Assembly (NCBI GenBank): GCA_965203485.1
Contig: OZ241892.1
Span: 2,272,001-2,336,000 of the forward strand
DNA: 64,000 nt
Direction of reading: 5' to 3'
Origin: Longimicrobiales bacterium
GTDB lineage: Bacteria; Gemmatimonadota; Gemmatimonadetes; Longimicrobiales; Gaopeijiaceae
Below, one piece after another: positions 7,379 through 64,000 of the stretch. The notes beneath the pieces are model-generated. The model was not told where the DNA came from. It saw only the letters and a list, made by a program, of their open reading frames with translations, and searched no databases. Position 1 is the stretch's first letter. Each line of letters opens with the position of its first letter. Both the position numbers and the translations under genes were made by a program.

Positions 7379-8479
7379 TCACGCCTCGTCGCTGGGCGGC
7401 GGCCAGGGTTGCGCGGCCCAGCGTCGCATGCCGTCCAGGCTGGGGGGCAGGGGCGACTCGAAGGCCATCGGCACGCCCGACACCGGGTGCGCGAACTCGA
7501 GGCGGTGCGCGTGCAGGAACTGGCGGGACGCCCGCCGCGCCAGCGCACGCGCCCATTGGCCGTCGGCGCCCTGGAATCCACGTTCGCGCCCGGCCCCGTA
7601 GACGGAGTCGCCCACGACGGGGTGGCCCACGGAGGCCGCGTGGACACGGATCTGGTGCGTGCGCCCCGTGGCCAGCTTGGCCTCGCAGAAACAGGCCGCC
7701 CGCCAGCGCTCGAGCACGCGAAAACGGGTCTGCGCGGGGCGGCCGGCGGCGACGACGGCCATGCGGGTGCGGTCGCGCGGGTGCCGTCCGACCGGGCGGT
7801 CCACCGTCGTGGGCGATTCCGGCAACTTTCCCCACAACGCCGCCATGTAGGTGCGGCCCACCGCGCGTTCCTGCAATGCGCCCGACAGGGCTCGGTGCGC
7901 CCGTTCGGACTTGGCCGCCACCATCAGGCCGGAGGTGTCGCGGTCGAGACGGTGCACGATCCCGGGCCGCCGCGGTCCGCCGATGCCGGACATTTCGCCC
8001 ACATGGTGCAGCAACGCGTTGACCAGCGTGCCGCTCGGATGGCCCGGCGCCGGGTGCACGACCAAGCCGGCCGGCTTTTCGACGACGACCAGGTCGGCGT
8101 CCTCGAACACGATGTCGAGCGGGATGTCCTCGGGCCGGGCGGAGACCGGCGGCGGCGGCGGAACCAGCGCCGCGACGCGCTGTCCGGCGGAGACGGCCTG
8201 GGACTTGCGCGCCGGAGAGCCGTCCACCCTCACCCAGCCCCCCTCGATCAGGCCGGCGGCCCGGCTGCGCGACGTGCCCAGCTCGGCGGCGACATGGCGG
8301 TCCAGACGGCCGGCCGCCCCGTCGGCGACGACCCAACGCCGCCGCTCCTCGGCCACGCCCTGCGGACCGGCGTCGTCTCCGCTCGCGCCGGGCCGACGTC
8401 CGCCCGGCGCCTCGTCGCGTCCGTCTCCGCCGTCGCCCGGCGGCGGCGCTTGCTCCGGGGCCGGGGCCAAGGCGTCCAT
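7379..8479 (-). CDS. rluD: RluA/RluD family pseudouridine synthase
   Basis: S4 domain RLDRHV..SRSRA, KPAGLVVHP, HRLDRDTSG, TGRTHQIRVH. Confidence 0.9.
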   Translation of the reverse strand: MDALAPAPEQAPPPGDGGDGRDEAPGGRRPGASGDDAGPQGVAEERRRWVVADGAAGRLDRHVAAELGTSRSRAAGLIEGGWVRVDGSPARKSQAVSAGQRVAALVPPPPPVSARPEDIPLDIVFEDADLVVVEKPAGLVVHPAPGHPSGTLVNALLHHVGEMSGIGGPRRPGIVHRLDRDTSGLMVAAKSERAHRALSGALQERAVGRTYMAALWGKLPESPTTVDRPVGRHPRDRTRMAVVAAGRPAQTRFRVLERWRAACFCEAKLATGRTHQIRVHAASVGHPVVGDSVYGAGRERGFQGADGQWARALARRASRQFLHAHRLEFAHPVSGVPMAFESPLPPSLDGMRRWAAQPWPPPSDEA

Positions 8480-11400: not shown

Positions 11401-11604
11401 GCAGAAGAGGTCCTTGAGCGCGCGGCTCACGACGTGGTGCAGGCCGGGCCGCCCGTTGGCGGTCGGGGGTCCTTCGAAGAACACGAAGTCCCCGGCGGCG
11501 CCGGCGGCTTCCTGGACCCGCCGGAAGGTGTCCTCGTCTCGCCACGCCGCCAGCACTTCCTCCTCCAGCAAAACGAGCGAGGAGGGCGCTTCGGGAAAGC
11601 GCAT
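8479..11604 (-). CDS. ileS: Isoleucine-tRNA ligase, type 2
   Basis: EGPPTANG, GWDTHGLPVE, WTTTPWT, GTGIVHLAP, SRDRYWGTP, DQTRGWFY, KMSKS. Confidence 0.97.
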   Translation of the reverse strand: MRFPEAPSSLVLLEEEVLAAWRDEDTFRRVQEAAGAAGDFVFFEGPPTANGRPGLHHVVSRALKDLFCRYQTMLGKRVTRIAGWDTHGLPVEIEAQKRLGIAGKKEIEARGIAWFNEQCRSSVFAYKSEWERFSERIGYWLDYSRPYVTLSPEYVESVWWILKRMAATGLLYRGHKVVPWCPADETVLSAHELSLGYRDVEDPSLYVRLDLEDGSGRGLLVWTTTPWTLVANAALAVNPEIEYVEAEHEGRRVVLARDRAEALLGADAVRARVPADDLLGRRYRRPFDLIPESRAKGCAWEIVPGAFVTAAEGTGIVHLAPAYGADDYEVGEKLGLAVLEPLRTDGTFDPGLPLVGGVFFKDADDLLVGDLRRRGRVFRCGRAVHSYPHCWRCDAPLVYMARHSWFARTSALRDALLENNRQVSWHPPEVGRGRFEEWLKGNVDWALSRDRYWGTPIPAWVSEEDPGRVEWIGGLDELAAKAGGLPAGFDPHRPFVDEVTWTCPESGAAMRRTPEVLDVWFDSGAMPWAQWHYPFENRERFDRHFPADFICEAVDQTRGWFYSMHAISTLLGSGPAFRNVVVNDMILDAQGRKMSKSRGNTVDPWDAVAEQGADGLRWYLVTVSNPWLPTRYDPEDAKESASRFFDTLLNTYRFFALYGKIEGWDPAGPPPLASARPALDRWLLSRLHGLVGRVRAGLDGYGPTRAYRDVAAFVDADLSNWYVRRSRPRFWGATGAEDSAAAFATLHEALRVVALLVAPVAPFASDWLHRALVGRSSHAEPFPAADPALAVPELEEQMGHARALSALARAAREEIGERVRQPLRRMRAVVPGPPPAPDVLQLLKDEINVKEVEFADSADGLTALSARPRFRSLGRRFGKRTQEAAARIRALGHAELAAFRDGEGELRLEVGGERVEFGADDFELVAEARGDWVVRSDGRCVAALDPVLTEELVREGVARDLVNRIQRVRRDEGLNVTDRIRVAIGGAAEVVAAAREHRARIARETLAVSVEAGDEVGGGFESRHECVVAGETAVLGLSAVS

Positions 11605-11606
11605 GG

Positions 11607-12563
11607 TCAGGCCCTGGAGGGGCGGGGCGGCGCACCGCCTCGCTGGGTCTCCGCCGGGACGAGGCGCGCATCCGGGGGAGCGGCGGCCGCGTCCCCCGGA
11701 GATCCGGCCGCGGGCCGGCACGCTTCGATCGCCGGGTCGCCGAGGACGCCGGAGAGGATGCGCAGCAGGGCGGGCTGGGCGGCCTGGGCCGCGGCGGCGA
11801 CACTCTCGGCCGTGGCCGCGTCCGGCACGGGAAGACACGTGTTGGCGACGACCGACAAGCCGAGGACCCTCATGCCCATGTGGCGCGCCGCGATCGTCTC
11901 GGGGACGGTGGACATTCCCACGACGTCGGCGCCCGCGGCGCGCAGCATGCGATTCTCGGCGCCGGTCTCCAGCTGGGGCCCTCTCACGGCGGCGTAGACG
12001 CCCCGCCGCAACGGCACGCCGCCGGCGGCGGCCGCCGCCGCCGCGCGCTCCCGCAACGCCTCGTCGTAGGGCGCCGACATGTCGGGGAAGCGCGGCCCGA
12101 GCTCGTCGAGGTTGGGGCCGATCAGCGGGCTCGTGCCTTGCAGGTTGACGTGGTCGTCGAGCGCAACCCAGTCTCCCGGGCGCCAACGGTCGTGCAGGCA
12201 TCCCGCGGCCGCCGTCACCACCAAGTCGCGGGCGCCCAGCAGCTTGAGGACGCGCACCGGGAAGACCACTTGAGCCGCGGAATAGCCCTCGTACAGGTGG
12301 ATGCGGCCCTGCATCGCAACCACCGGTGCCCCTCGGAGCCGCGCCAGGACCAGCCGGCCACGATGGTTGGAAGCGGTCGAACGAGGAAAGTGCGGGATCT
12401 CCTCGTACGGGATCTCGCATTCGACGTCCCATTCGGCGGCCGCGCCGCCCAGCCCCGTGCCGAGCACGACGCCCGCGCGGGGTTCGACGGAGCAACTCCG
12501 GCGCACGGCCGCCGCCGCTTCCCGGAGCCGCGCCATCTCGCCCTCGGCGAAGCCGGTCGTCAT
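11607..12563 (-). CDS. punA: Purine-nucleoside phosphorylase (trimeric type)
   Basis: VLGTGLG, MQGRIHLYEG, GPRFPDMS, GPQLETGAE, DVVGMSTVPE. Confidence 0.9.
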   Translation of the reverse strand: MTTGFAEGEMARLREAAAAVRRSCSVEPRAGVVLGTGLGGAAAEWDVECEIPYEEIPHFPRSTASNHRGRLVLARLRGAPVVAMQGRIHLYEGYSAAQVVFPVRVLKLLGARDLVVTAAAGCLHDRWRPGDWVALDDHVNLQGTSPLIGPNLDELGPRFPDMSAPYDEALRERAAAAAAAGGVPLRRGVYAAVRGPQLETGAENRMLRAAGADVVGMSTVPETIAARHMGMRVLGLSVVANTCLPVPDAATAESVAAAAQAAQPALLRILSGVLGDPAIEACRPAAGSPGDAAAAPPDARLVPAETQRGGAPPRPSRA

Positions 12564-13276
12564 GTCGGCCGGGCTCCCAGCAACGCCGTCCCCAGGCGCA
12601 CCATCGTGCTGCCCTCCTCCACGGCCACGGCGTAGTCGCTGGACATCCCCATCGAAAGTTCCAGCGACGCGACGCCGAGCGCCTTGGCCGCGAGCGCGGC
12701 CGCTTCCCGCGCGCGCCCGAAGGTCGCCCGCAGCACGGCCTCGTCGCTGGTGAACGGCGCCATCGTCATCATCCCCGTCATGCGCAGGCCGGGCAGTTCG
12801 GCAACGGCGGCGGCCTCGTCCGGCGCGGCGTCGGGCGCGAAGCCCCCCTTCGTCGCTTCGCCCGACGCGTTGACCTGCACCAGCACCGAGGTCTCGCGCC
12901 CAGCGGCCTCCGCGGCGCGCGACAGCTTGCGCGCGAGCTTGAGCGAATCCACGCTGTGGACGAGTCCGCCCAGTTGCACGGCGCGGGCCGCCTTGCGGCT
13001 CTGCACGTGCCCGATCACGTGCCAGCGCGCGCCGCGCGCGTGGAACAGGGGCGCCTTGGCCTCGAGCTCTTCCACGCGGTTCTCTCCCAAGTCGCGCACG
13101 CCCGCGTCCAGCACGGCCTCGGCGGCGGCGGGCGGGTGACCCTTGGTGACGGCCACCACGCGAACTGCGCTCGCCGGTCTTCCGCCGCGCCCCGCCGCAT
13201 CGGCGATCCGCTCGGCTACGAGCGGAAGGCGGTTGCCGAGGAAGCGCGAGTAGGCCGCGACGTCCAACGCGCTCAA
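12560..13276 (-). CDS. yggS: PLP homeostasis protein YggS
   Basis: VAVTK, LGENRVEE, WHVIGHVQSRK, LSMGMSSDY, GSTMVRLG. Confidence 0.93.
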   Translation of the reverse strand: MSALDVAAYSRFLGNRLPLVAERIADAAGRGGRPASAVRVVAVTKGHPPAAAEAVLDAGVRDLGENRVEELEAKAPLFHARGARWHVIGHVQSRKAARAVQLGGLVHSVDSLKLARKLSRAAEAAGRETSVLVQVNASGEATKGGFAPDAAPDEAAAVAELPGLRMTGMMTMAPFTSDEAVLRATFGRAREAAALAAKALGVASLELSMGMSSDYAVAVEEGSTMVRLGTALLGARPT

Positions 13277-50974: not shown

Positions 50975-51889
50975 TCAGCCCGCCTTCGCGAGCGGGGGGT
51001 CCCGGAAGATCCGCCGGCGATGCCATGCGACGAACACGGGCGACGGCGCGAGCTCGGGCGTTGTCGGCGGCCGGACGGCCTTGCCGTGCAAGTCGAGCAG
51101 CTGCCTCGTCGCCGGACTCGCGCCTTCGACTTCGCCCGACACCAGCACGCGGAGGCGCCGTTCCACGGGCTCGAGGCCCAGCGCGCCCCGGTCCAGCGCC
51201 CTGCGGTGAGGCAGACAGAGCGCGAGCGCGTTCGAGACCTCGCTGGGCCCCCCGCGAGAACGCCACTTGATCCGCGCCGCCCGCAGTCCGAACACCCACT
51301 CGTCCGCCCGGCTGGCCGGATCGCACACGGCGCAACGGCGGCGGTACTCCTCGAGCACTTTCGCCTCGAAGGACGCGTCGCGCGCGCCCGCGCGCCGATC
51401 CGGCCGCAGCAGACCCCAGTCCCAGCTGATTCCGGCGGCGGCCTTGACGTCGTCGTGGACCGACGGCGGAAAGTGCTCGTCCAAAAGCTGCTCGGCCGCC
51501 GCCACGACCAACGCTGGATCGGACGCCAGCAACTCGTGAACCCGCGCCGGAAAGCCTCCCATCGCCCCGCGCTCGCGCAACTCCTTCGGCCGCAGGTCCC
51601 CGCTGGCGCTCGTCGAGAAGTCCTCGTCTCCCGGAATCTCCCATAGGCCGTCCCGCCGGAGCCGTCCGAAGGGAAACTCCGGGTGCACGACGCTCCTCGA
51701 CGGACCGAAGCGCGCCAGCAAGTCGCCGAGCTCCCGCTCCACGTTCGCATACGCGACCAGCCGCGGCCGACCCCGCGTCACGCGCCCCAGCGCCAGCAAC
51801 AGCAGGAGCGGCTTGTGCGGCGCGCGTCGGCCGTGCCGCTTCCCAGTTCTGATCGCCTCGACGCGGCGGAGGAACTCGGCCTTAGTCAT
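50975..51889 (-). CDS. SBD-HNH type (phosphorothioated-DNA-binding) restriction endonuclease homolog with degenerate active site
   Basis: APHKPLLLL, PEFPFGRL..DGLW, CAVC, AARIKW..GGP..VSNALALC..H, WHRR.IF. Confidence 0.75.
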   Translation of the reverse strand: MTKAEFLRRVEAIRTGKRHGRRAPHKPLLLLLALGRVTRGRPRLVAYANVERELGDLLARFGPSRSVVHPEFPFGRLRRDGLWEIPGDEDFSTSASGDLRPKELRERGAMGGFPARVHELLASDPALVVAAAEQLLDEHFPPSVHDDVKAAAGISWDWGLLRPDRRAGARDASFEAKVLEEYRRRCAVCDPASRADEWVFGLRAARIKWRSRGGPSEVSNALALCLPHRRALDRGALGLEPVERRLRVLVSGEVEGASPATRQLLDLHGKAVRPPTTPELAPSPVFVAWHRRRIFRDPPLAKAG

Positions 51890-52022
51890 CGATCGGACGT
51901 TGTCTTCATGGCCGCCAATGTGGGCCGACGACGACTGGGACGCCAGCCGGTCCCGACTCGGGGTCGGATTGTTCCAATCGACGCATCCAACCCCAGCAGG
52001 CGCGGGGCCGACGCGCCCCGAA

Positions 52023-52980
52023 TCAGGGCCGCGCTCGTCGTAGAACGCCACGCTGAGCACAAGGCTCGCCAGACGCGGGCCGAACCGGCCGCACGAAGAT
52101 GTGCGTCTCCGTTGGGTCGAACACGGGGACTTGCCTGCCGTTCACCCTTCTCCTCGTCGGTTGCCGACTGCTCTCCAGCGTCACGACGCTGTCGCCGAAC
52201 ATCCCGACATAGCTCAGGCCGCCTGGGGAGCGCCTGTCCTTCAGCAAAGCGTAGCAACCCGTCGCCCGCTCCACGACGGCCCCCGCGAGTCCGTCCTTTG
52301 GCGACGTTATGACGACAAGCCGACCATCGTCGGCCAGGAAAAGGTTGTGGTACCCGTCTTGTACTCCGTGAGGACGTGGTGCATGCCGTACAGCACATAT
52401 GCGGCCGAATCAGTACACGTCATCAAGGTTTCAAAGTAGCTGCTCACGTCATCCATGGAGACCGGTGTCCGAGCCCGAGCTTCGCCGCCCAACGCAACGC
52501 TTTCGCCGTCTTCGCCACGGAACACCACGCCCTTCCGCAGCGCCGGGACGGCGGGGCGGCCGTTCAACGCGCAAAGAGCCAACGTTCCCGGCACGGGCAA
52601 CCTCCATTGATGGAAAAGGTCACCCGACCAACTCCAGTAGAGCACCCTGCCCGGGCCCGAAACGAAGACCCCGTCCGGTCCCACGGCCGTCGCGTTCACT
52701 TGCGTGAGTTCGCCCGGCCCGTCGCCCGGCCGACCGCCTCCGAAGACGCCCAGCGCCGAACCGTCGTCCAGCGAGTAGGCCGTCACCGCCAGCGGATCGG
52801 CGGCCTCCGAGACGACCACCAGCCGACGGCCGTAGTCCACGGCGACCGCCGGGCCGAACGATATTCTGCGCCGCCGGCGATCTCGCGCCCCGAGTCCAGG
52901 TCCACTTCCAGAACTTGTTGCGTCGCCGCTTCCGTCGCGGCCGCCGCAACGGCGGCTACGACGCTGGTCCAACGGCGCAT
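52023..52980 (-). pseudogene. Frameshifted secreted beta-propeller-like gene
   Basis: Signal peptide MRRWTSVVAA, frame change near 52860, GDGPGEL motif, further break near 52300. Confidence 0.55.
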
Positions 52981-53250
52981 GTCCGGTTCCCGCCGCACTT
53001 GCGGGCGGTGGAAGGCGCGCGCCGGCGCTGGTGAGGGGGCCGCTGGTTGCCGTGGGCGAAGACGGCGCGACGACGCAGGGACGCAAGGGCGCCTTGTGCA
53101 GGTGCGGCGCATCGTTGTCCAGCCGTTCTGCGACGGGGCCCACCGGGAGTGCGGCTTCGAGGCGGGGTGGATTCAACGCCTTCCGATGCGCCCCTCCACG
53201 AATCGAAGAGCGATCCCTTCACCGTGAAGCGTCCGAGCCCATGGCAGGCG

Positions 53251-54150
53251 TCAACACACGTAGTCCCGAAGGTCGTACCCCAGCTCCGTCATGACCTGTC
53301 CGTGAGCGTCCACGAGCCGCCGCGCTTGCGCCGCGGTCAAGTGGCGCCGCCATCCGCCCACCTTGCCGGAGCGAAAGAACCGGCGGCCCTGTTGCAGGTA
53401 GTTGCGGTACCCGTCTTGTTCTTCGGCACTCCGCAAGTTCGCGAAGCTCGCAAGGCCGACCGCGCGCCGCAGCCGAGCTTGGTCGGCGGCGCCTTCGAGC
53501 CCGAGGAACCGCGCCATCCTGCCCAGTTCGCCCGCTGGATTCGCCAGCATGTCCTCGTAGCGCACCGTCAGCACTGGAAAGGGCGCCGCCTGCCAGCTCG
53601 TCACGTGGCTCGACCAGTCGCTCACGATCTCCCTCAGGCGAGGCCATTCGGCATGTCCAATCTGGTGATTGGGATTGCAGAGATTGTTGACGGCGCTCTC
53701 GAAGTCGCCGCCCAGATAGAACGCCCACGAGACCGCCACGTCAAGAGGATTGCGCACCGCGTACAACGCCCCGCAAGTCGCGTCGTCCGGGAACAGCGGC
53801 TCGCCCGCCGCCGTGTCGACGAAGGTCTCGTGGGCCGGACAGTACAGGCGCACTCCGGAAGAGTCGGGTGGTTGCGCGGCCAGAACCCGGTAGACGGCGG
53901 GCCGGAGCGCGTCGGCTTCGTCCTGCGTCAAGTCCGACGCCACGAGCCCCGTGAGCCGCTCGAAGAGCGCCGGGTCGCAAGAACGCCGCCCGGGCAGCGC
54001 CTCGTCGATGTCGTTGATCGCGACGGCAGGCCCGCAGCGATCCGCCAGGAAGTTGGCCAGCAACGCCTCTCGCCACGTGGTGCCCGACCGCACGTAGCCC
54101 GCCAGCCAAACGAGCCGCCGCCCGCCGGCAACGCGACGCGACTGGATCAA
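53251..54150 (-). CDS. Sulfotransferase (Sulfotransfer_1 type)
   Basis: 5'-PSB-like WLAGYVRSGTTW, 3'-PB YAVRNPLDVAVS, RYEDM, FFRSGKVGGW; TTGA coupling to the upstream gene. Confidence 0.88.
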   Translation of the reverse strand: MIQSRRVAGGRRLVWLAGYVRSGTTWREALLANFLADRCGPAVAINDIDEALPGRRSCDPALFERLTGLVASDLTQDEADALRPAVYRVLAAQPPDSSGVRLYCPAHETFVDTAAGEPLFPDDATCGALYAVRNPLDVAVSWAFYLGGDFESAVNNLCNPNHQIGHAEWPRLREIVSDWSSHVTSWQAAPFPVLTVRYEDMLANPAGELGRMARFLGLEGAADQARLRRAVGLASFANLRSAEEQDGYRNYLQQGRRFFRSGKVGGWRRHLTAAQARRLVDAHGQVMTELGYDLRDYVC

Positions 54151-55082
54151 ACCGGGTCCGGAGCCAACAGTCGCTCGGCCACGGCGTTCACGCACTGGGG
54201 CAGCCACGCGGCGTCGTTGGACAGGGGGAATCCGAAACGATGCACTTGAACACGGCGGGCAAGCGCAATCACGCGGCGGAACAGCTCCTCTTGCCCCAGA
54301 ACCGCGACGGCAACGCGCGCCTGGAAGACCACCGTCCAGATGATCCTCATCATTTCCGGGCCGGTCACGCGCTTGAAGTCCATGCGGTCCTCGTCGTCCG
54401 GTGGACAGATGTGCGATCCAAGAAAATGCATCGTTCGCAACAACCCCGACACCCGGGGCGAGCGCGTGCGCGGGGCGACATGCCACTTTTCGTAGCCTTC
54501 GACCGACCGCACCGGCTTGCGTTCCTGACCGTCGAGGCCGACGGCCGCCAATGCCCGCGGGCCCAGCCTCAGGTCGTCGCAACGCCAGCACCGCACATCG
54601 TCCCCGCTTCGGGCCGGATCGACGATCAGTACATTGTCGGCGAAGAAGGAACAACCCCGTCCGGCCAGCCCCGCCGCCAGCGTCGACTTGCCCCAAAATG
54701 GGCTGGAGCCAAAGGCGTGCACAACTGCCTCCAACGCCACGGCGCTGGCGCGGAGCGCAAGCAGTCCGCGATGCAAGACCAGAGCCGGCAGCGCGGCCTC
54801 CAGCACGAACAGCCGAACGTCCGCTTCCGCAAGCTCCGGCTTGGCTGCCCAGCGGATGCGCTCCCCGCCTTCCACCAGCAACCGCAGGCCGCACGGCAAG
54901 CGGAACAGCAGGCGGTCTCGTGCACGGGCCCAGGCCACGCCCTCGCTCTCGGGGTTCGCAAGCGCGTCCGGCACCTCGCCGCGCCGAATCGTCACGTCGG
55001 CTCCGTGGCGGCGCACCCAAGGCTGAGCCCCGGCCCCAAGGTCGATGTCGGCGTCCATCGTGAACGGAGGCGCGTCGGTCAA
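54147..55082 (-). CDS. HPr kinase-related protein, degenerate catalytic motifs
   Basis: LALRASAV, GSSPFWGKST, FFADNV; paralog of 61498-62442. Confidence 0.78.
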   Translation of the reverse strand: MTDAPPFTMDADIDLGAGAQPWVRRHGADVTIRRGEVPDALANPESEGVAWARARDRLLFRLPCGLRLLVEGGERIRWAAKPELAEADVRLFVLEAALPALVLHRGLLALRASAVALEAVVHAFGSSPFWGKSTLAAGLAGRGCSFFADNVLIVDPARSGDDVRCWRCDDLRLGPRALAAVGLDGQERKPVRSVEGYEKWHVAPRTRSPRVSGLLRTMHFLGSHICPPDDEDRMDFKRVTGPEMMRIIWTVVFQARVAVAVLGQEELFRRVIALARRVQVHRFGFPLSNDAAWLPQCVNAVAERLLAPDPV

Positions 55083-55592
55083 GGCGGGCCAGCCCCAGCA
55101 GGGTCGGCCTCGCCGAACGAAGCCGGATCGAGGGCCAAGATGTCGTCGGCAAAACGATATCCGTGTGCCGCCAGTCCCGCGGCCAACGTGGACTTGCCCG
55201 CCCCCGGCGGCCCCGTGAAGGCATGGACGTCGTCTCCCGCGCGGGCCGTGTTGGCACTGGCATGCATGGGAAGCAACCTCCCAATGAGCATCCCATACGG
55301 GACCCACGATCGCGTCTTCTCCGCCATTCGCCTCATTGTTGCGGCGTCCCGGCCGGACGGCCATGCGTCAGCGAACGGTCCGGCCATCCTCCAGCGGGAA
55401 GCGGCTGCCGTTCCATGTGGTGAACGGCAAGCGGCCTTCCACGCACTGGCGCCGTGGCGCGTTCCACGCCGGCTTCGGCAAGGACTCCGGCGCCGGTCCG
55501 CGCCAGACGGTCACGTCGCTGCCATGGTCGCGCAACCAAGGCGACCCCGCCCGCTCCAAGTCCGGGTCGGCGTCGACGGTGAACGGTGCCAG
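55079..55592 (-). pseudogene. Truncated/frameshifted HPr kinase-related gene
   Basis: APFTVDAD N-terminus, internal stop at 55368, then LPMHASA, GPPGAGKST, FADDIL in another frame, early stop. Confidence 0.75.
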
Positions 55593-55593
55593 C

Positions 55594-55803
<210 letters not shown>

Positions 55804-55862
55804 GCATGGAGTTCTTTCCTTTGCCGAAGAGGTCCGAAATGCCCGAAGAAGCCAGCGGCGTC

Positions 55863-55891
55863 AAGGTAGCTCGGGCCGTCAAGGGAGGCAA
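55863..55891 (-). promoter_or_regulatory. Putative sigma70-type promoter for the precursor (repeated in every unit)
   Basis: TTGCCT-N17-TACCTT on the minus strand about 60 nt upstream of the ATG. Confidence 0.45.
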
Positions 55892-56518
55892 GGAAGCGGC
55901 CCCGGAGATTGTCGCAGGCTCTTCGCTGAACCTGGTGGTTCGCGGTCTACCGCCCAGGCGCGGGAAGCGGTCGAACGCCGTCTTCAGCTCCGCGCCCGGC
56001 ACCCACTCCCCCGTCGCCGCCATGTGGGACCCCACATGTCCAATCGACACGCTCCCCAACGCGGCCAGCCAGCCCCCGGACCTGTTCCGCCTTTCGGCGC
56101 TCGAGCTCCCGGCGCACCGCCGGCTCCGTGATGCCGCTCACGGCGTTTCCCAGCTCATCTCATGCGCTTCGACCCCCCCCCCCCCCCCCCCCGAGGATGC
56201 TGCCTCCCCGACTGAGCATCCCACACGGGACCCACGATCGCGTCTTCTCCGCCATTCGCCTCATTGTTGCGGCGTCCCGGCCGGCCATGCGTCAGCGAAA
56301 CGGTCCGGCCATCCTCCAGCAGGAAGCGGCTGCCGTTCCATGTGGTGAACGGCAAGCGGCCTTCCACGCACTGGCGCCGTGGCATGTTCCACGCCGGCTT
56401 CGGCAAGGACTCCGGCGCCGGTCCGCGCCAGACGGTCACGTCGCTGCCATGGTCGCGCAACCAAGGCGACCCCGCCCGCTCCAAGTCCGGGTCGGCGTCG
56501 ACAGTGAACGGTGCCAGC

Positions 56519-56737
56519 CTAGCAGTTCATGGGTGTGGCGGCATCATCGGAGTTGGTCTTGTCAGTTGGGCTCCCGGGTTCGTAGCAACCGCCGCCGGGG
56601 TAGAAGGAGCCGATGCGGTCGAAGGGGGAACAGTCGAGCTTGGGGGGCGTCCACGGCCGTCTGGCCCCCTTGGCCGATCGTTCCTCGGTCTGCGCGCTCA
56701 ACAGGGGGGGGGGGGGGGGGGGGGGGGAGAGAGACAT
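56519..56737 (-). CDS. Putative RiPP precursor 2 (in frame; core GSFYPGGGCYEPGSPTDKTNSDDAATPMNC)
   Basis: Same leader as copy 1, different core. Confidence 0.75.
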   Translation of the reverse strand: MSLSPPPPPPPLLSAQTEERSAKGARRPWTPPKLDCSPFDRIGSFYPGGGCYEPGSPTDKTNSDDAATPMNC

Positions 56738-57443
56738 GATGGAGTTCTTTCCTTTTGCCGAACAGGTCCGAAATGCCCGAAGAAGCCAGCGGCGTCAAGG
56801 TAGCTCGGGCCGTCAAGGGAGGCAAGCAAGCGGCCCCGGAGATTGTCGCAGGCTCTTCGCTGAACCTGATGGTTCGCGGTCTACCGCCCAGCCGCGGGAA
56901 GCGGTCGAACGCCGTCTTCAGCTCCGCGCCCGGCACCACTCCCCCGTCGCCGCCATGTAGGGACCCCACATGTCCAATCGACACGCTCCCCAACGCGGCC
57001 AGCCAGCCCCCGGACCTGCTCCGCCTTCCGGCGCTCGAGCTCCCGGCGCGCCGCCGGCATCCATGATGCCGCTCACGGCGTTTCCCAGCTCATCTCATAC
57101 GCTTCGACCCCCTGAGGATGCTGGCCTCCCCGACTGAGCATCCCACACGGGACCCACGATCGCGTCTTCTCCGCCATTCGCCTCATTGTTGCGGCGTCCC
57201 GGCCGGACGGCCATGCGTCAGCGAAACGGTCCGGCCATCCTCCAGCAGGAAGCGGCTGCCGTTCCATGTGGTGAACGGCAAGCGGCCTTCCACGCACTGG
57301 CGCCGTGGCATGTTCCACGCCGGCTTCGGCAAGGACTCCGGCGCCGGTCCGCGCCAGAGGTCACGTCGCTGCCATGGTCGCGCAACCAGTGCGACCCCGC
57401 CCGCTCCAAGTCCGGGTCGGCGTCGACAGTGAACGGTGCCAGC

Positions 57444-57666
57444 CTAGCAGTTCATGGGTGTGGCGGCATCATCGGAGTTGGTCTTGTCAGTTGGGCTCCC
57501 GGGTTCGTAGCAACCGCCGCCGGGGTAGAAGGAGCCGATGCGGTCGAAGGGGGAACAGTCGAGCTTGGGGGGCGTCCACGGCCGTCTGGGCCCCTTGGCC
57601 GATCGTTCCTCGGTCTGCGCGCTCAACAGGGGGGGGGGGGGGGGGGGGGGGGAGAGAGAGAGACAT
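57444..57666 (-). CDS. Putative RiPP precursor 3 (same core as copy 2; ATG out of frame, alternative TTG at 57626)
   Basis: GA run next to the poly-G is 4 nt longer than in copy 2; ATG-to-stop length 223 nt. Confidence 0.6.
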
Positions 57667-58375
57667 GATGGAGTTCTTCCTTTTGCCGAACAGGTCCGAA
57701 ATGCCCGAAGAAGCCAGCGGCGTCAAGGTAGCTCGGGCCGTCAAGGGAGGCAAGGAAGCGGCCCCGGAGATTGTCGCAGGCTCTTCGCTGAACTTGATGG
57801 TTCGCGGTTTGCCGCCCAAGCGCGGGCGGTCCGGTCCACGTTCTTGCGCAACGCCGCGAACAGCCTCTCGACACGAATCGTCTTGCCGCGTCCGGTCAGC
57901 CACCGGTCCATCGACACGCTCCCCAACGCGGCCAGCCAGCCCCCGGACCTGCTCCGCCTTCCGGCGCTCGAGCTCCCGGCGCGCCGCCGACTCCATGATG
58001 CCGCTCACGGCGTTTCCCAGCTCATCTCATGCGCTTCGACCCCCCGAGGATGCTGGCCTCCCCGACTGAGCATCCCACACGGGACCCACGATCGCGTCTT
58101 CTCCGCCATTCGCCTCATTGTTGCGGCGTCCCCGCCGGACGGCCATGCGTCAGCGAACGGTCCGGCCATCCTCCAGCAGGAAGCGGCTGCCGTTCCATGT
58201 GGTGAACGGCAAGCGGCCTTCCACGCACTGGCGCCGTGGCATGTTCCACGCCGGCTTCGGCAAGGACTCCGGCGCCGGTCCGCGCCAGACGGTCACGTCG
58301 CTGCCATGGTCGCGCAACCAAGGCGACCCCGCCCGCTCCAAGTCCGGGTCGGCGTCGACGGTGAACGGTGCCAGC

Positions 58376-58587
58376 CTAGCAGGTAACGCCTCCGGAAGGC
58401 TGGGAGTTGGTCTTGTATTTGGTGCTCCCGGGTTCGAAGCAGTTGCTACCGGGGTAGAAGGAGCCGATGCGGTCGAAGGGGGAACAGTCGAGCTTCGGGG
58501 GCGTCCACGGCCGTCTGGGCCCCTTGGCCGTTCCTCGGTCTGCGCGCTCAACAGGGGGGGGGGGGGGGGGGGGGGGGAGAGAGACAT
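58376..58587 (-). pseudogene. Putative RiPP precursor 4, out of frame (core GSFYPGSNCFEPGSTKYKTNSQPSGGVTC)
   Basis: 4-nt deletion near 58530 in the leader; ATG-to-stop length 212 nt. Confidence 0.6.
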
Positions 58588-59296
58588 GATGGAGTTCTTT
58601 CCTTTGCCGAAGAGGTCCGAAATGCCCGAAGAAGCCAGCGGCGTCAAGGTAGCTCGGGCCGTCAAGGGAGGCAAGGAAGCGGCCCCGGAGATTGTCGCAG
58701 GCTCTTCGCTGAACTTGATGGTTCGCGGTTTGCCGCCCAAGCGCGGGCGGTCCGGTCCACGTTCTTGCGCAACGCCGCGAACAGCCTCTCGACACGAATC
58801 GTCTTGCCGCGTCCGGTCAGCCACCGGTCCATCGACACGCTCCCCAACGCGGCCAGCCAGCCCCCGGACCTGCTCCGCCTTCCGGCGCTCGAGCTCCCGG
58901 CGCGCCGCCGACTCCATGATGCCGCTCACGGCGTTTCCCAGCTCATCTCATGCGCTTCGACCCCCCGAGGATGCTGGCCTCCCCGACTGAGCATCCCACA
59001 CGGGACCCACGATCGCGTCTTCTCCGCCATTCGCCTCATTGTTGCGGCGTCCCCGCCGGACGGCCATGCGTCAGCGAACGGTCCGGCCATCCTCCAGCAG
59101 GAAGCGGCTGCCGTTCCATGTGGTGAACGGCAAGCGGCCTTCCACGCACTGGCGCCGTGGCATGTTCCACGCCGGCTTCGGCAAGGACTCCGGCGCCGGT
59201 CCGCGCCAGACGGTCACGTCGCTGCCATGGTCGCGCAACCAAGGCGACCCCGCCCGCTCCAAGTCCGGGTCGGCGTCGACGGTGAACGGTGCCAGC

Positions 59297-59513
59297 CTAG
59301 CAGGTAACGCCTCCGGAAGGCTGGGAGTTGGTCTTGTATTTGGTGCTCCCGGGTTCGAAGCAGTTGCTACCGGGGTAGAAGGAGCCGATGCGGTCGAAGG
59401 GGGAACAGTCGAGCTTCGGGGGCGTCCACGGCCGTCTGGGCCCCTTGGCCGATCGTTCCTCGGTCTGCGCGCTCAACAAGGGGGGGGGGGGGGGGGGGGG
59501 GGGAGAGAGACAT
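59297..59513 (-). CDS. Putative RiPP precursor 5 (same core as copy 4; ATG out of frame, alternative TTG downstream)
   Basis: Extra A at the tract edge; ATG-to-stop length 217 nt. Confidence 0.6.
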
Positions 59514-59625
59514 GATGGAGTTCTTTCCTTTGCCGAAGAGGTCCGAAATGCCCGAAGAAGCCAGCGGCGTCAAGGTAGCTCGGGCCGTCAAAGAAGGCAA
59601 GGAAGCGGCCCCGGAGATTGTCGCA

Positions 59626-60100
59626 GGCTCTTCGCTGAACCTGATGGTTCGCGGTCTACCGCCCAGGCGCGGGCGGTCCGGTCCACGTTCTTGCGCAACG
59701 CCGCGAACGCCAGCTTCTCGGCACGAGTCTTGCCGCGTCCGGTCGGCCACCGGCAACGCGTCCTCGCGAGCGCGGCGCTGTCCTGGGCCAGCAGCTCGCG
59801 GTGTTCGGCGTGCCGCGCCTTGTCCACCGCGTCCGCCTGGTGCTCGGCCACATGGAAGCGGTCGAACGCCGTCTTCAGCTCCGCGCCCGCCACCCACTCC
59901 CCCGTCGCCGCCATGTTAGGGATACCACATGTCCATCGACACGCTCTCCAACGCGGCCAGCCAGCCCCCGGACCTGCTCCGCCTTCCGGCACTCGAGCCC
60001 CCGGCGCACCGCCGACTCCATGATGCCGCTCACGGCGTTTCCCAGCTCATCTCATGCCCCCCCCCCCCCCCCCCCCCCCCCGAGGATGCTGCCTCCCCGA
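59626..60100 (-). mobile_element. ISL3 family transposase remnant (longest internal fragment, unit 5)
   Basis: VSMDMW, FDRFHVAEH..DAVDKAR..EHREL, LRK..RTARAWA are ISL3 DDE-domain motifs; right IR GGCTCTTCG. Confidence 0.8.
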
Positions 60101-60410
60101 CTGAGCATCCCACACGGGACCCACGATCGCGTCTTCTCCGCCATTCGCCTCATTGTTGCGGCGTCCCGGCCGGACGGCCATGCGTCAGCGAACGGTCCGG
60201 CCATCCTCCAGCAGGAAGCGGTTGCCGTTCCATGTGGTGAACAGCAAGCGGCCTTCCACGCACTGGCGCCGTGGCGCGTTCCACGCCGGCTTCGGCAAGG
60301 ACTCCGGCGCCGGTCCGCGCCAGACGGTCACGTCGCTGCCATGGTCGCGCAACCAGTGCGACCCCGCCCGCTCCAAGTCCGGGTCGGCGTCGACGGTGAA
60401 CGGTGCCAGC

Positions 60411-60629
60411 CTAGCAGTTCAAAGGGATTCCTCCTAGATTAGTGGAGTTGGTCTTGTCAGTTGGGCTCCCGGGTTCGTAGCAACCGCTGCCGGGATAGAA
60501 GGAGCCGATGCGGTCGAAGGGGGAACAGTCGAGCTTGGGGGGCGTCCACGGCCGTCTGGGCCCCTTGGCCGATCGTTCCTCGGTCTGCACGCTCAACAGG
60601 GGGGGGGGGGGGGGGGGGGGGGGAGACAT
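60411..60629 (-). CDS. Putative RiPP precursor 6 (in frame; core GSFYPGSGCYEPGSPTDKTNSTNLGGIPLNC)
   Basis: Same leader; ATG-to-stop length 219 nt. Confidence 0.75.
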   Translation of the reverse strand: MSPPPPPPPPLLSVQTEERSAKGPRRPWTPPKLDCSPFDRIGSFYPGSGCYEPGSPTDKTNSTNLGGIPLNC

Positions 60630-60743
60630 GCTTTGGAGTTCTTTCCTTTGCCGAAGAGGTCCGAAATGCCCGAAGAAGCCAGCGGCATCAAGGTAGCTCG
60701 GGCCGTCAAAGAAGGCAAGGAAGCGGCCCCGGAGATTGTCGCA

Positions 60744-61394
60744 GGCTCTTCGCTGAGCCTGGTGGTTCGCGGTCCACCGCCCAGGCGTGGGCGGTCCGGT
60801 CCACATTCTTGCGCAACGCCGCGAACAGCCTCTCGGCACGAATCGTCTTGCCGCGTCCGGTCAGCCACCGGTCCATCGACACGCTCTCCAACGCGGCCAG
60901 CCAGCCCCTGGACCTGCTCCGCCTTCCGGCGCTCGAGCTCCCGGCGCACCGCCGGCTCCATGATGCCGCTCACGGCGTTTTCCAGCTCATCTCATGCGCT
61001 TCGACCCCCCGAGGATGCGGGCCTCCCCGAGCCACGCCGCCACCTCGTCCTCGAACGCCGCCGTGTACCTCGACCTGTCCGCCGCCCAGGGCATGGAGAC
61101 CGTTCTTCACCCCGTGCTCTGGAGACTCGACCAGATGCCACCACTCCCGCTCCCGAGCGTCGTAGCCCGGACACGGCTGGCCGCGCTCGGGACACGTCAG
61201 AGGCTCGCCCGACCGCCTCGCCGCGCACACGCGCCTCCTTTCAGCACCGGGTCCCCCTCGACCCCCTCCACCTTCCAGCCCGGCCCCAACGCCATCAAGC
61301 TCCTGCACCCACTTCGCATCTCCAACCTCGCCTCCTCGGTTCATGGTCCATGTCGCCCCCGATCCCACCCAGCCACACCAATATGGGAAGCGCC
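60744..61394 (-). mobile_element. Internally deleted ISL3 family element with both ends
   Basis: IRs GGCTCTTCGCTGAGCCTGGTGG and (rc) GGCGCTTCCCATATTGGTGTGG; flanks TTGTCGCA / TGTTCGCA resemble a decayed 8-bp TSD; CPGYD.RER.W.HL, PEHGVK, PWA..RSRYT motifs. Confidence 0.78.
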
Positions 61395-61497
61395 TGTTCG
61401 CAGTGGCCCAGCACCGGGCGGACCGAGTAGCTTTGCGTGTCTCTCGCATCAGATTCCGCCGGACGGACGTCCGGCAAGGCATCCGGCAGGCATTGTC

Positions 61498-62442
61498 ATG
61501 CAAGCTCCCTTCACGGTCGACGCCGACATCGACTTGGGCGTGCGAGCCGCTCCCTGGATCCGCGCCCACGGCGCCGACGTGGTCGTCCGGCGCGGGCCGG
61601 TGCCGACGGTCCTCCCCAACCCGGCGCGGTGCAGTGTCGCGTGTCAGTGCGCTGAAAACCAAGTGCTGATCACGGTCCCTTGCGGCATCCGCTTCTTGGT
61701 GGAGGGCGGCGAGTCGATTCGCTACGCCGTGGACGAAGGCCGAGGGGCGGCAGAGGTGGACTTGCGGACATTCCTCGTCGGCGCCGCTTGGCCGGCCCTG
61801 GCGCTGCAACGGGGCTTCTTGCCACTGCACGCAAGCGCAGTGAGCCGCCGCGGCAACGTGCATGGCTTCGCCGCCGGGGCGGGCGGCGGCAAGTCCACGA
61901 TGGCAGCGGCTCTCGCCGGGCGGGGCTGGTCGTTCTTCGCCGACGACGTGCTGCTCATTGCTCCCGCACCGCCCGGACAGGAAGTCCTTTGCCATTCGCT
62001 TGGCGACCTCAAGCTTCCGCGCGAGGGACTGGCCGCCGTCGGAGCGTCCGCCCGGGGGCCGGTCCGAGATGTCGACAGTGGGATCGCCTTGCACGCCAGC
62101 TTCAAGGTGTATGCTGAACCACGCCAGTGGTCGTCGGGAATCGGCGGCCGACTCGCGACGCTCCATGGATTGGAAGGGTGGGGCTTTCCGGAGGCCGATC
62201 CAACCCGAATTGAGCGGTTGACCGGCCGCCGTGCCGCAGAGTTCATGTGGGGAGCGGTGTACAACTCTACCCTGGCGCACGAGATCGCGAGACAACGGCG
62301 GTTGTACCAAGCGGTCGCGGCCACCAGCCGACAGGTCGTTATGTCAAAGTTCCATTTCAGCCGCGTTGCCAATCGTTTCGAGGAGATCGTGGAGAGGCTG
62401 GCTCGGGACTTGTCCGCCGTCGCGGCCGCGGGGCCCCAGTGA
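61498..62442 (+). CDS. HPr kinase-related protein (lasso-cluster kinase-like), motifs intact
   Basis: LPLHASAV, AGAGGGKST, FFADDV. Confidence 0.85.
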   Translation: MQAPFTVDADIDLGVRAAPWIRAHGADVVVRRGPVPTVLPNPARCSVACQCAENQVLITVPCGIRFLVEGGESIRYAVDEGRGAAEVDLRTFLVGAAWPALALQRGFLPLHASAVSRRGNVHGFAAGAGGGKSTMAAALAGRGWSFFADDVLLIAPAPPGQEVLCHSLGDLKLPREGLAAVGASARGPVRDVDSGIALHASFKVYAEPRQWSSGIGGRLATLHGLEGWGFPEADPTRIERLTGRRAAEFMWGAVYNSTLAHEIARQRRLYQAVAATSRQVVMSKFHFSRVANRFEEIVERLARDLSAVAAAGPQ

Positions 62443-63332
62443 CGACGGCGGCACGTGCCACGCGACGCGGTGCGCAATTGGCGGGCAAAGACGGCATCGT
62501 GTGGCTGGCGTCGTATCCCAGGTCCGGCAATACGTGGACCAGAATCCTCCTGGCCAATTTCCTATCCCGGTCGGACGAACCCATACCCGCCAATGCCTTG
62601 CCGCAGGCGTTGTCGAGGTCCGCAAGCAGCCGTGCTAGGTTCGAGCGTCTTGTCGGGCTGGAATCCTTCGACCTTGCCGACGCCGAAATCGAGTCGTTGC
62701 TTCCCGCCGCCTGCCGAGCGGAGGCCGAGCGCGCCGCGCGCCTCGGGACACGGTCGTTCCGCAAAGTTCACGACGCCCGCCGCGACACGTTGGTCGGCGA
62801 GTCGCTGTTTCCGGCCGCCGCGACGGCTGGAGCGATCTATCTCGTGCGCAACCCGCTGGACGTCGCGGTGTCGTGGACTTTTTACATGGGCCGACTGAAC
62901 TTCGGCGCAGCCGTAAGGATGCTGAACGAGGGCAACGTTATCGGTGGGAGCCCGTATCAGTTTCCGCAACAGTTGCTGAACTGGTCGAGCCATGTGGAGA
63001 GCTGGACGGACGCGCCGTTTCCAGTGCTGGCGGTGCGGTACGAGGACCTGTTGGCCGATACGGCCGGGCAACTGGCCGCCATGGTGCGCTTCTTGGGGCT
63101 TGAAGGCAACGCCGACGGAGACCGGATCCGGCGGGCGGTCTCCTTCTCGGCATTTGAGCAATTGCAGGAGGACGAGGCGAACAACGGGTTCAGGAACCGC
63201 GCTCGCTCGTGTCGGACGTTCTTTCGTTCCGGCAAGGCCGGGCAGTGGCGGCAACACCTGACTTCGAAGCAGGTGGCGGAAGTCGTCCGCGCAAATGAGC
63301 GGGTCATGAAGGAATGGGGATACTGGGACTGA
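62439..63332 (+). CDS. Sulfotransferase (Sulfotransfer_1 type)
   Basis: WLASYPRSGNTW, YLVRNPLDVAVS, RYEDL, FFRSGKAGQW; GTGA coupling. Confidence 0.9.
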   Translation: MTTAARATRRGAQLAGKDGIVWLASYPRSGNTWTRILLANFLSRSDEPIPANALPQALSRSASSRARFERLVGLESFDLADAEIESLLPAACRAEAERAARLGTRSFRKVHDARRDTLVGESLFPAAATAGAIYLVRNPLDVAVSWTFYMGRLNFGAAVRMLNEGNVIGGSPYQFPQQLLNWSSHVESWTDAPFPVLAVRYEDLLADTAGQLAAMVRFLGLEGNADGDRIRRAVSFSAFEQLQEDEANNGFRNRARSCRTFFRSGKAGQWRQHLTSKQVAEVVRANERVMKEWGYWD

Positions 63333-63696
63333 CGCGGCCCGGGCGACGTGAGCCGCTTCCGGCATGGTCCCGGCGCGGTCCAAGGGCTGGAGACCACGAC
63401 GCCGCGCGAATGTCCAAGTGTTTGAGTCGCGCGGGCGTCGCCGTTGGACGCGGGAACCTCCGCGAAGCATCCTGCCAATCAGAATCTCCAAGGGCCCCCG
63501 AACACCCAAACCTACCACGCCCGCCCGCTCTTCGGTACCTTCCGACCTTCAATCCCCGGTCAGATCAACAGAGTCGGCCTTCTCTGGCAGACTCTAGGCT
63601 AGGATTTGTTCCAAGTGGAGCGCCACGATCCCGTCATCGACTGATCCGTCTACGCCCAGCGTTCCCGCTCTGGTTCGGGCACGCCTAGCTGAAGAC

Positions 63697-64000
63697 ATGA
63701 GCCGCGCAGGGGTCGCCTGGTGGCCGCTTGGCCGCCGGTACCTCGCCGATCCCTACCCCGCGCTGCGCCGTTTGCGGGAAGCGGATCCCTGCCACTGCAG
63801 CGCTCTGGCCCAGCATTTCCTGGTGTCGCGCTACAGCGATGTCGACCGCGTCCTCCGGGATCACGAGCACTTCCGCAACGGCGAACGCCGGAGCCCGCCG
63901 GGCACGCCGGCACGTATTCGCCCAATGCACCACACGGACCCACCGGTCCACACGCGCTTGCGCCGTTTGGCCAACCAAGCGTTCAGCACGCGTCATCAAA
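63697..64000 (+). CDS. Cytochrome P450, N-terminal part (truncated by the window edge)
   Basis: Hand translation: MSRAGVAWWPLGRRYLADPYPALRRLREADPCH..VSRYSDVDRVLRD..DPPVHTRLRRLANQAFS. Confidence 0.85.
   Translation, partial: MSRAGVAWWPLGRRYLADPYPALRRLREADPCHCSALAQHFLVSRYSDVDRVLRDHEHFRNGERRSPPGTPARIRPMHHTDPPVHTRLRRLANQAFSTRHQ

Follow-up and report, generated by a model that had tools for sequence, protein, structure and literature searches.

A probable lasso-peptide cluster of a Longimicrobiales bacterium with an amplified precursor array and poly-C runs behind the precursor start codons

Lasso-peptide clusters that contain a kinase, a sulfotransferase and a nucleotidyltransferase have been noted for Firmicutes, and in the paeninodin/pseudomycoidin type, split B1 and B2 proteins and a cyclase are accompanied by an HprK-like kinase adjoining the precursor, a nucleotidyltransferase and sometimes a sulfotransferase (PMC8498205). 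The known lasso kinases phosphorylate, and need, a C-terminal Ser (PMC8498205). Cytochrome P450s are also known from lasso clusters, including those of the biaryl lassos nocapeptin A and longipeptin A (PMC10664482), and a cyclase that is tolerant at core position 1 has recently been reported (PMC13632552). Sponge microbiomes harbor uncharacterised lasso families with oxidoreductases and sulfo-, glyco- and nucleotidyl-transferases, the products of which are unknown (PMC9426513). Here we describe a 64,000-nucleotide stretch of a Longimicrobiales genome (contig OZ241892.1, positions 2,272,001 to 2,336,000; hereafter the window), the right end of which, together with the DNA that follows it, is very probably a lasso-peptide cluster. 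The window holds the precursor-and-tailoring (left) half of this cluster, and we consider it reasonably likely that a single set of B1, B2 and cyclase matures several disulfide-locked Tyr1-Glu8 lassos from precursors that are switched by runs of C.

A preliminary description of the window had proposed a new system for RiPPs (peptides that ribosomes synthesize and that are modified post-translationally), one that makes a small peptide library, had linked its HprK-like kinases to paeninodin, and had suggested looking past 64 kb for a cyclase, a PqqD-type RiPP recognition element (RRE) and a B2 peptidase. The window belongs to one contig of 3.56 Mb, and a cyclase, B1, B2 and a nucleotidyltransferase are all present 3-7 kb beyond the window end (locus L001, where the window coordinate equals L001 + 58000). 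The gene C for the Asn-synthetase-like cyclase (L001:8750-10687, + strand) matches PF00733, encodes the ATP-binding motif SGGLDS and has NF033535 as its best NCBIfam family (E 6e-46, under the cut-off). The remaining genes, also on the + strand, encode the PqqD-type B1/RRE (L001:~11284-11577; PF05402, E 1.5e-17), the nucleotidyltransferase (L001:~11574-12725; PF14907, E 5e-49) and the transglutaminase-like Cys peptidase B2 (L001:~12722-13213), which has its Cys and His and scores 78.5 bits for NF033537 against a cut-off of 33. There is a single PqqD (B1) match and a single B2 match in the entire genome, C, B2 and the P450 have intact catalytic motifs, and housekeeping genes lie on both flanks of the cluster. 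The proposed RiPP locus with a small peptide library was borne out, as was the paeninodin link, HprK-like kinases being part of a lasso cluster; the claim of novelty did not survive, since lasso clusters of the kinase/sulfotransferase/nucleotidyltransferase type are already in print.

Two results weigh against the lasso assignment, namely that the cyclase scores 157 bits whereas the NF033535 cut-off is 525, and that no transporter was recognised within or beside the cluster. The low cyclase score, together with the finding that no solved lasso cyclase was retrieved by sequence, would suit a wholly new RiPP class in which kinase, sulfotransferase and P450 build peptides that form no lasso; however, B2 is over the lasso cut-off, B1 is of the lasso type and is joined by the lasso leader motif, Glu8 of the predicted core is invariant and the best family of C is that of lasso cyclases, which makes such a class very improbable. 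The cluster works like the paeninodin type and departs from it at the C-terminal Ser, as its cores end in Cys (penultimate in the precursor A7) and not in the Ser that the kinases require. It further differs by three kinases plus remnants, two sulfotransferases, a P450, seven precursors and the lack of a recognised transporter. The available part of the text on the sponge 'highly modified lassopeptide' families contains no cores, arrays or C runs, and the family described here may be among them (PMC9426513).

The seven precursor genes are all on the - strand. Within the window, A1 (55594..55803; P0039) has a predicted 25-aa core with Gly7, A2 (56519..56737; P0001) a predicted 27-aa core that is also the core of A3 (57444..57666), A5 (59297..59513) a predicted 26-aa core with Phe7 that is also the core of A4 (58376..58587), and A6 (60411..60629; P0040) a predicted 28-aa core, so that the six array copies amount to four distinct cores. 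The seventh, A7 (L001:11000-11242), is without a C run, carries Arg for Trp in the RRE motif and is possibly degenerate. A profile of the precursor family has seven matches in the 3.56-Mb genome, and since all seven lie inside this cluster, the family is not a product of chance. When searched against 1.84 billion proteins, the profile gave six matches, comprising this genome's own, four homologs and one 724-aa repeat protein (P0086), which was dropped as spurious ahead of the count of family precursors. This count stands at nine, five distinct here and four outside homologs (P0084, P0085, P0087 and P0088), with P0097-P0099 uncounted; a direct precursor search returned the cluster of this genome alone.

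The motif Y-P-G-x4-E-P-G and a later Lys are invariant in all nine family precursors. The leader motif W-x-x-P-x-L is shared by the six array genes and reads W-T-P-P-K-L in six of the seven precursors, A7 having Arg for Trp. In canonical lasso leaders, this motif stands at a usual spacing from a Thr at position -2. The array precursors have Ser at this position and A7 has Ala, while two of the four outside homologs (P0084 and P0085) place a Thr two positions ahead of the Tyr, with the customary spacing to W-x-x-P-x-L, and Ser, Ala, Val or Ile occurs in the remaining precursors. The Thr at -2 in the two homologs indicates that the most likely ring is Tyr1-Glu8. Given cleavage before Tyr, Glu8 is invariant (9/9), and an Asp or Glu at core position 7-9 is expected of a lasso core. 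Furthermore, Cys6 and a terminal Cys (penultimate in A7) are present in all five distinct cores, and two Cys in two of the four outside homologs, whereas the tail that follows a conserved K-T-N-S is hypervariable. Read from these sequences, the product can be predicted with good confidence as a set of Tyr1-Glu8 ring cores bearing a disulfide, and the disulfide-containing peptides of the preliminary description remain likely. With macrolactam and disulfide in place, the calculated monoisotopic masses are 2389.98 for A1, 2727.05 for A2, 2688.16 for A5 and 2821.23 for A6.

Having the shared leader motif and one B1 and one B2 match in common, the array precursors would enter a single maturation route in which, by analogy with homologs, B2 would cleave ahead of the invariant Tyr and the cyclase would close the ring between Tyr1 and Glu8. 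A disulfide from Cys6 to the terminal Cys would then link ring and tail in a class III-like manner, enclosing in a loop the hypervariable residues that come after K-T-N-S. Class III lassos (BI-32169 and 9401-LP1) likewise have one disulfide with a C-terminal Cys, and Snou-LP has Tyr at position 1; these are single Streptomyces peptides of 18-19 aa (PMC5974421), unlike the present cores, which combine Tyr1 with the Cys pair in 25-28 aa and come with tailoring enzymes. Cleavage elsewhere is distinctly improbable, whether after I-G, which would produce a Ser1-Glu10 ring, or after K-T-N, which would release short non-lasso Ser...Cys peptides. Some leaders of clade relatives do have Val/Ile at -2 and Gly at -1, A7 aligns through V-G, and a Thr stands two residues before a Ser ahead of the hypervariable tail. 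Nevertheless, the canonical Thr lies exactly two residues before Tyr in two homologs, I-G/V-G is not kept in P0084, P0087 and P0088, and lasso rings are described as having 7-9 residues (PMC10664482). In addition, the short tails have no Asp/Glu at positions 7-9, and two homologs end right after K-V-N. The ten-residue ring was dropped on account of the Thr in P0084 and P0085, and a literature search for a lasso ring of this size, with most subscription papers outside its reach, returned nothing.

The six array precursors are embedded in a tandem array (55269..61030) of ~925-bp units that are 90-95% identical, and the spacers are occupied, every unit containing a remnant of an ISL3 transposase along with the 5' third of a gene for a kinase. 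The ISL3 remnant is 79% identical to an intact copy elsewhere; its longest copy is at 59591..60090 (- strand; PF01610, E 1.1e-7), and shorter ones occur in each unit and at ~60640-61340. In several relatives the precursor is directly followed by the kinase; from this adjacency, the repeat unit is likely to be an ancestral precursor-kinase pair that was cut by the transposon and then amplified, an ISL3 insertion beside the pair having presumably preceded the tandem amplification. With units built of ISL3 and kinase remnants, three of six copies out of frame, a degenerate-looking A7 and no cyclase match in two complete congeneric genomes, the array might also be decaying, transposon-amplified debris of precursors and pseudogenes, little expressed in an eroding cluster. 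This is improbable, as C, B1, B2, the nucleotidyltransferase, two kinases, the right-hand sulfotransferase and the P450 have intact frames, with intact catalytic motifs where checked, none of the four divergent cores has lost its open frame or, for all their indels, Tyr1, Cys6, Glu8 or the terminal Cys, and contigs of a second sample are identical over the cyclase-to-B2 part.

Divergence among the four distinct copies is sharply partitioned. In the leader, 10 of 558 sites differ (1.8%), and in the downstream kinase remnant 53 of 1926, a figure inflated by its ragged end, but in the ring region 27 of 180 do so and in the tail 103 of 318 (32%). Synonymous divergence is 0.021 in the leader and 0.345 in the ring, where non-synonymous divergence is 0.148, and over residues 9-17, with the indel-rich tail left out, the non-synonymous value is 0.169 and the synonymous one 0.184. 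Positive selection by point mutation in the cores is therefore unsupported, non-synonymous divergence not exceeding synonymous divergence; instead, the cores look like old alleles inside homogenised flanks. Under an amplified-unit model, recombination would homogenise leaders and flanks while the old divergent cores persist. The hypervariable cassettes of cyanobactin patE also combine a constant leader with a variable core. This core-versus-flank contrast, the transposon-remnant repeat unit and the poly-C runs had all been missed in the preliminary description.

Contigs from three samples and two studies span most of the A6-to-B2 region, one of the sequencing runs being labelled as a sponge metagenome and no RNA data set being among the matching samples. 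The contigs of the second sample have zero differences over the cyclase-to-B2 part. The best-matching sample may itself be the source sample. Many differences of the other-sample contigs fall in the core, as other array copies would predict, and a low-depth contig read by hand suggests another precursor variant with Val and His before Tyr. The closest cyclases (P0003-P0010) are 58-78% identical. Against the relatives of this bacterium, 36 of 60 gave a cyclase match, all weak (best E 5e-22, mostly 22-33% identity), and none was found in two complete congeneric genomes; from these results the cluster looks to have been acquired by this lineage.

Related clusters were sought by a cyclase-alignment scan of 185,579 species genomes, which yielded four loci, two in Azotimanducaceae (G441 and G442), one in Longimicrobiales (G443) and one in Bryobacterales (G444); the genome under study is G000. 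Their cyclases are 39-42% identical, and three of the four loci have a kinase, a sulfotransferase and precursors with a like leader. Single-protein locus scans with the cyclase gave no loci, and neither did the alignment scan of metagenome contigs. The Bryobacterales cyclase (L025) belongs to the same clade and is an orphan, with no PqqD or precursor match in its genome; the genes beside it are presumably glycosyltransferases. In G443 (OZ251577.1; L024, L049, L059-L076, L109 and L110), one lasso system is spread over the chromosome, with 16 precursors, mostly of the Gly1-Asp8 type, Cys-rich and all ending in G-S, as well as at least two cyclases and one nucleotidyltransferase-B2 fusion; related P450s give 20 matches there and kinases five. 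In the lasso clusters of G441 and G442 (L022, L023 and L050), the genes for sulfotransferase, PqqD and kinase are repeated, tetratricopeptide repeat (TPR) and 2-oxoglutarate (2OG)-Fe(II) oxygenases are present, and the predicted cores are Thr1-Glu8 with Val/Ile at -2.

A second property of the array is that each of its precursors carries a long run of C behind the start codon. The six runs (G on the + strand) lie within 55773..60623, with low ends at 55773, 56704, 57629, 58554, 59480 and 60599; they are 24-27 nt long and start 4-14 nt from an ATG that is preceded by a purine-rich, ribosome-site-like stretch. Two extra runs (C on the + strand) are found at unit junctions, at 56173 and 60057. 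A1 (C27), A2 (C24) and A6 (C25) are in frame from the ATG, A3 and A5 (both C24) are at +1, and A4 (C24) is thrown out of frame by a 4-nt deletion in the leader. The six precursor-like reading frames of the preliminary description are thus present, but with four distinct cores and with A1, A2 and A6 alone in frame from the ATG. Simple-sequence-repeat contingency loci, in which a homopolymer in the 5' coding region sets the frame, are well known; in contrast to these and to patE, the run here heads RiPP precursor genes.

Of 27 related precursor genes from four genomes, 25 have a C run of 14-27 nt behind the ATG, and the chance of such a run is ~1-2 in 10,000 per gene. Eight of the 25 run-bearing genes are in frame, as random frames would give, 14 are at +1 and three at +2. 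All 16 related precursors of G443 have a run (C14-C22), accounting for 16 of the 45 long runs of that genome, which is a stronger C-run case than the window; in G441 all three precursors have runs, one of them in a distant lasso cluster, and the G442 precursor, like A7, has none. Pro codons in the genome under study are 54% CCG versus 35% CCC, which argues that the run is a feature of the DNA and not of the encoded Pro. At the assembly level, the genes have what defines a phase-variable locus, namely a 5' coding homopolymer whose lengths and frames differ between copies, and the chances that each precursor is phase-variable through its C run appear evenly balanced. If it is, run length would set the frame, so that individual cells would express different subsets of the library.

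Several points weigh against such switching. The 27 genes (7 here, 16 in G443, 3 in G441 and 1 in G442) include paralogs, so that their counts are not independent, the contigs of other samples skip the C run, and A3 and A5 have, immediately behind the run, an in-frame TTG that could bypass the switch. The skew to +1 (14 versus 3) is also expected from biased homopolymer assembly error. It is possible, without being probable, that the runs are slippage-expanded, in-frame poly-Pro in a tolerant leader and that the out-of-frame states are assembly errors, in keeping with the 14 of 17 out-of-frame copies at +1, the abundance of long C/G runs across these genomes (42 in G000 and 36, 11, 31, 10 and 45 in five others) and the in-frame poly-Pro starts of P0085, P0087, P0088, P0092 and P0096, where gene callers see in-frame copies only. 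On the other hand, the runs are pure C and not mixed Pro codons, they occupy the position just behind the ATG across two phyla and also in the distant lasso cluster L052, duplicates are identical and have identical lengths (two G443 copies with C16; A2-A5 all with C24), and having 17 of 25 genes wrong would need a very high consensus error. Loss of mismatch repair as the cause of the runs was rejected, MutS being present in five of five genomes, this one included (MutL was not checked).

Outside the array, G000 has 34 further C/G runs of 14-30 nt (L086-L105), several of them in or before methylase, large-surface-protein and SGNH-type genes, and one just upstream of a gene that we take to be mutS. 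The frames after these runs carry a Pfam label in 10 of 19 cases, mainly DNA methylases, surface proteins (fibronectin- and TonB-type) and polysaccharide-modifying enzymes; the 19 frames come from 20 loci hand-picked, non-blind, from the 34 after their translations had been seen, and nine are without a Pfam match. Methylases, surface proteins and polysaccharide-modifying enzymes are the usual targets of phase variation, and the pattern is that of contingency loci. In L023, two C runs stand after B2 and the nucleotidyltransferase without leading into a precursor. Literature searches, with most subscription papers outside their reach, found no paper combining phase variation, a homopolymer and a precursor peptide or RiPP, and none joining a sponge symbiont, phase variation and a homopolymeric tract. 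A promoter scan gave 0 sites versus 0.5 expected and, at the GC content of this DNA, carries no information.

On both sides of the array the gene order agrees with the preliminary description, a sulfotransferase and an HprK-like kinase pointing left, six precursor frames, and a kinase, a sulfotransferase and a P450 pointing right. The left sulfotransferase ST_L (53251..54150, - strand; PF00685, E 3.9e-25) has a TTG start that overlaps the kinase stop, its 3'-phosphoadenosine-5'-phosphosulfate (PAPS) motif is slightly altered and it is without the Lys of the K-x-H motif that the right sulfotransferase has. The HprK/PEPCK-type kinase HprK_L (54147..55082, - strand; TIGR04352, E 4e-4), with an uncertain start at 55082 (TTG) or 55058 (ATG), is possibly impaired, as motif and alignment reveal a P-loop longer by one residue and DN instead of DD. 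Next to it is a frameshifted and truncated kinase pseudogene (55092..55598, - strand), with 85% nucleotide identity to the intact third kinase past the window. On the right, the HprK/PEPCK-type kinase HprK_R1 (61498..62442, + strand) has an intact P-loop and DD motif; the TIGR04352 matches of both kinases are weak and far under the cut-off. According to a confident predicted model (pLDDT, the predicted local distance difference test, 86.9), HprK_R1 has a PEPCK/HprK fold, its Foldseek matches being PEP carboxykinases (PEPCK) and HPr kinases (HprK/P). The right sulfotransferase ST_R (62439..63332, + strand; PF00685, E 2e-25) has intact motifs and is followed by the 5' part of the P450 gene (63697..64000, + strand; PF00067), which continues past the window (full gene L001:5697-6992) and has an intact heme Cys motif. 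The third kinase, HprK_R2 (L001:7349-8311, + strand), aligns with an intact P-loop and DD and is flanked by remnants of an HprK_L-like gene (L001:7254-7328 and 8374-8732). Identity between the left and right pairs is 44% for the kinase and 48% for the sulfotransferase, which rules out a recent inverted duplication; they are old paralogs, so that the reported mirror image is correct for gene order alone.

What these enzymes do to the cores can be predicted, each prediction being met by a contrary result. The segment K-[TV]-[NA]-[ST] is kept in all nine precursors and lies at most two residues from the end in two homologs; it may represent the former C-terminus and the present phosphate acceptor. 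As the usual C-terminal Ser is absent, a kinase would most likely phosphorylate the Ser of K-T-N-S among the available Ser/Thr, and the nucleotidyltransferase may glycosylate this phosphate. Opposed to this is the finding that a C-terminal Ser is present in none of the seven cores here versus 20 of 20 related precursors of G441-G443, and that most kinase copies in the cluster, which holds three kinases and at least six remnants, are broken, with the HprK_L motifs altered. The sulfotransferase may act on Tyr or on Ser/Thr. The nearest solved relatives of ST_R are Teg12, Teg14 and StaL, which act on a glycopeptide substrate, and this likeness points to a phenol on the peptide, whereas two related clusters pair sulfotransferases with Tyr-free cores, which argues against Tyr sulfation as a rule. 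A literature search, with most subscription papers outside its reach, surfaced no paper on what lasso-cluster sulfotransferases modify.

For the P450, a possible role is to oxidise, or to link, Tyr1 and the aromatic residue at position 7, which would become neighbors after ring closure. G443 contains 20 matches to the P450 family, many of them next to precursors and cyclases, and none occurs in G441 and G442, whose cores are without Tyr and Trp. As in nocapeptin A and longipeptin A, a P450 accompanies a lasso cluster with aromatic ring residues; those actinomycete peptides have Gly1-Asp8 rings with adjacent Trp/Tyr cross-linked (PMC10664482), while the aromatics here are at positions 1 and 7, Trp is absent, and the adjacent ring pair is not found. 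Furthermore, A1 has no aromatic residue 7, the nearest solved relatives of the enzyme are general P450s and, unlike in the nocapeptin/longipeptin case, members of the family are also found away from RiPP genes, both in this genome and in that of a congener (58-60% identity), all of which weakens the cross-linking proposal.

Viewed across the related clusters, we tentatively propose a Longimicrobiales/gammaproteobacterial lasso lineage with up to 16 precursors, each poly-C-switched, in which the present cluster contributes Tyr1 disulfide-locked cassettes tailored off the C-terminal Ser. If the C runs are switches, a natural-product library would be under separate control in each cell, in the manner of a variable surface antigen, which would suggest that the peptides act on an adapting host or competitor. 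There is a consequence for genome mining as well, since the two thirds of such precursor genes that seem frameshifted would be overlooked or written off as pseudogenes. The set of enzymes bears on the targets of lasso sulfotransferases and on the role of HprK-like kinases without a C-terminal Ser, and a Tyr1 cyclase tolerating a long variable disulfide loop would, if true, be useful as a scaffold for grafting. Should the runs be assembly noise only, an unusual but recognisable lasso cluster still remains.

Beyond the main subjects, a distant lasso precursor (L052:9700-9930) has Thr at -2 and acidic residues at core positions 6 and 10, possibly indicating an unusual ring. Two gene fragments flanking the cluster under study, at window 52310-53176 (-) and L001:10748-11149 (+), are without a Pfam match; they resemble what we take to be pieces of one beta-propeller-type protein and may mark an insertion site. 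At the left island edge (window 50975-52060, -), a 361-aa gene without a Pfam match presumably encodes an HNH restriction nuclease with an N-terminal region of the phosphorothioate-binding type.

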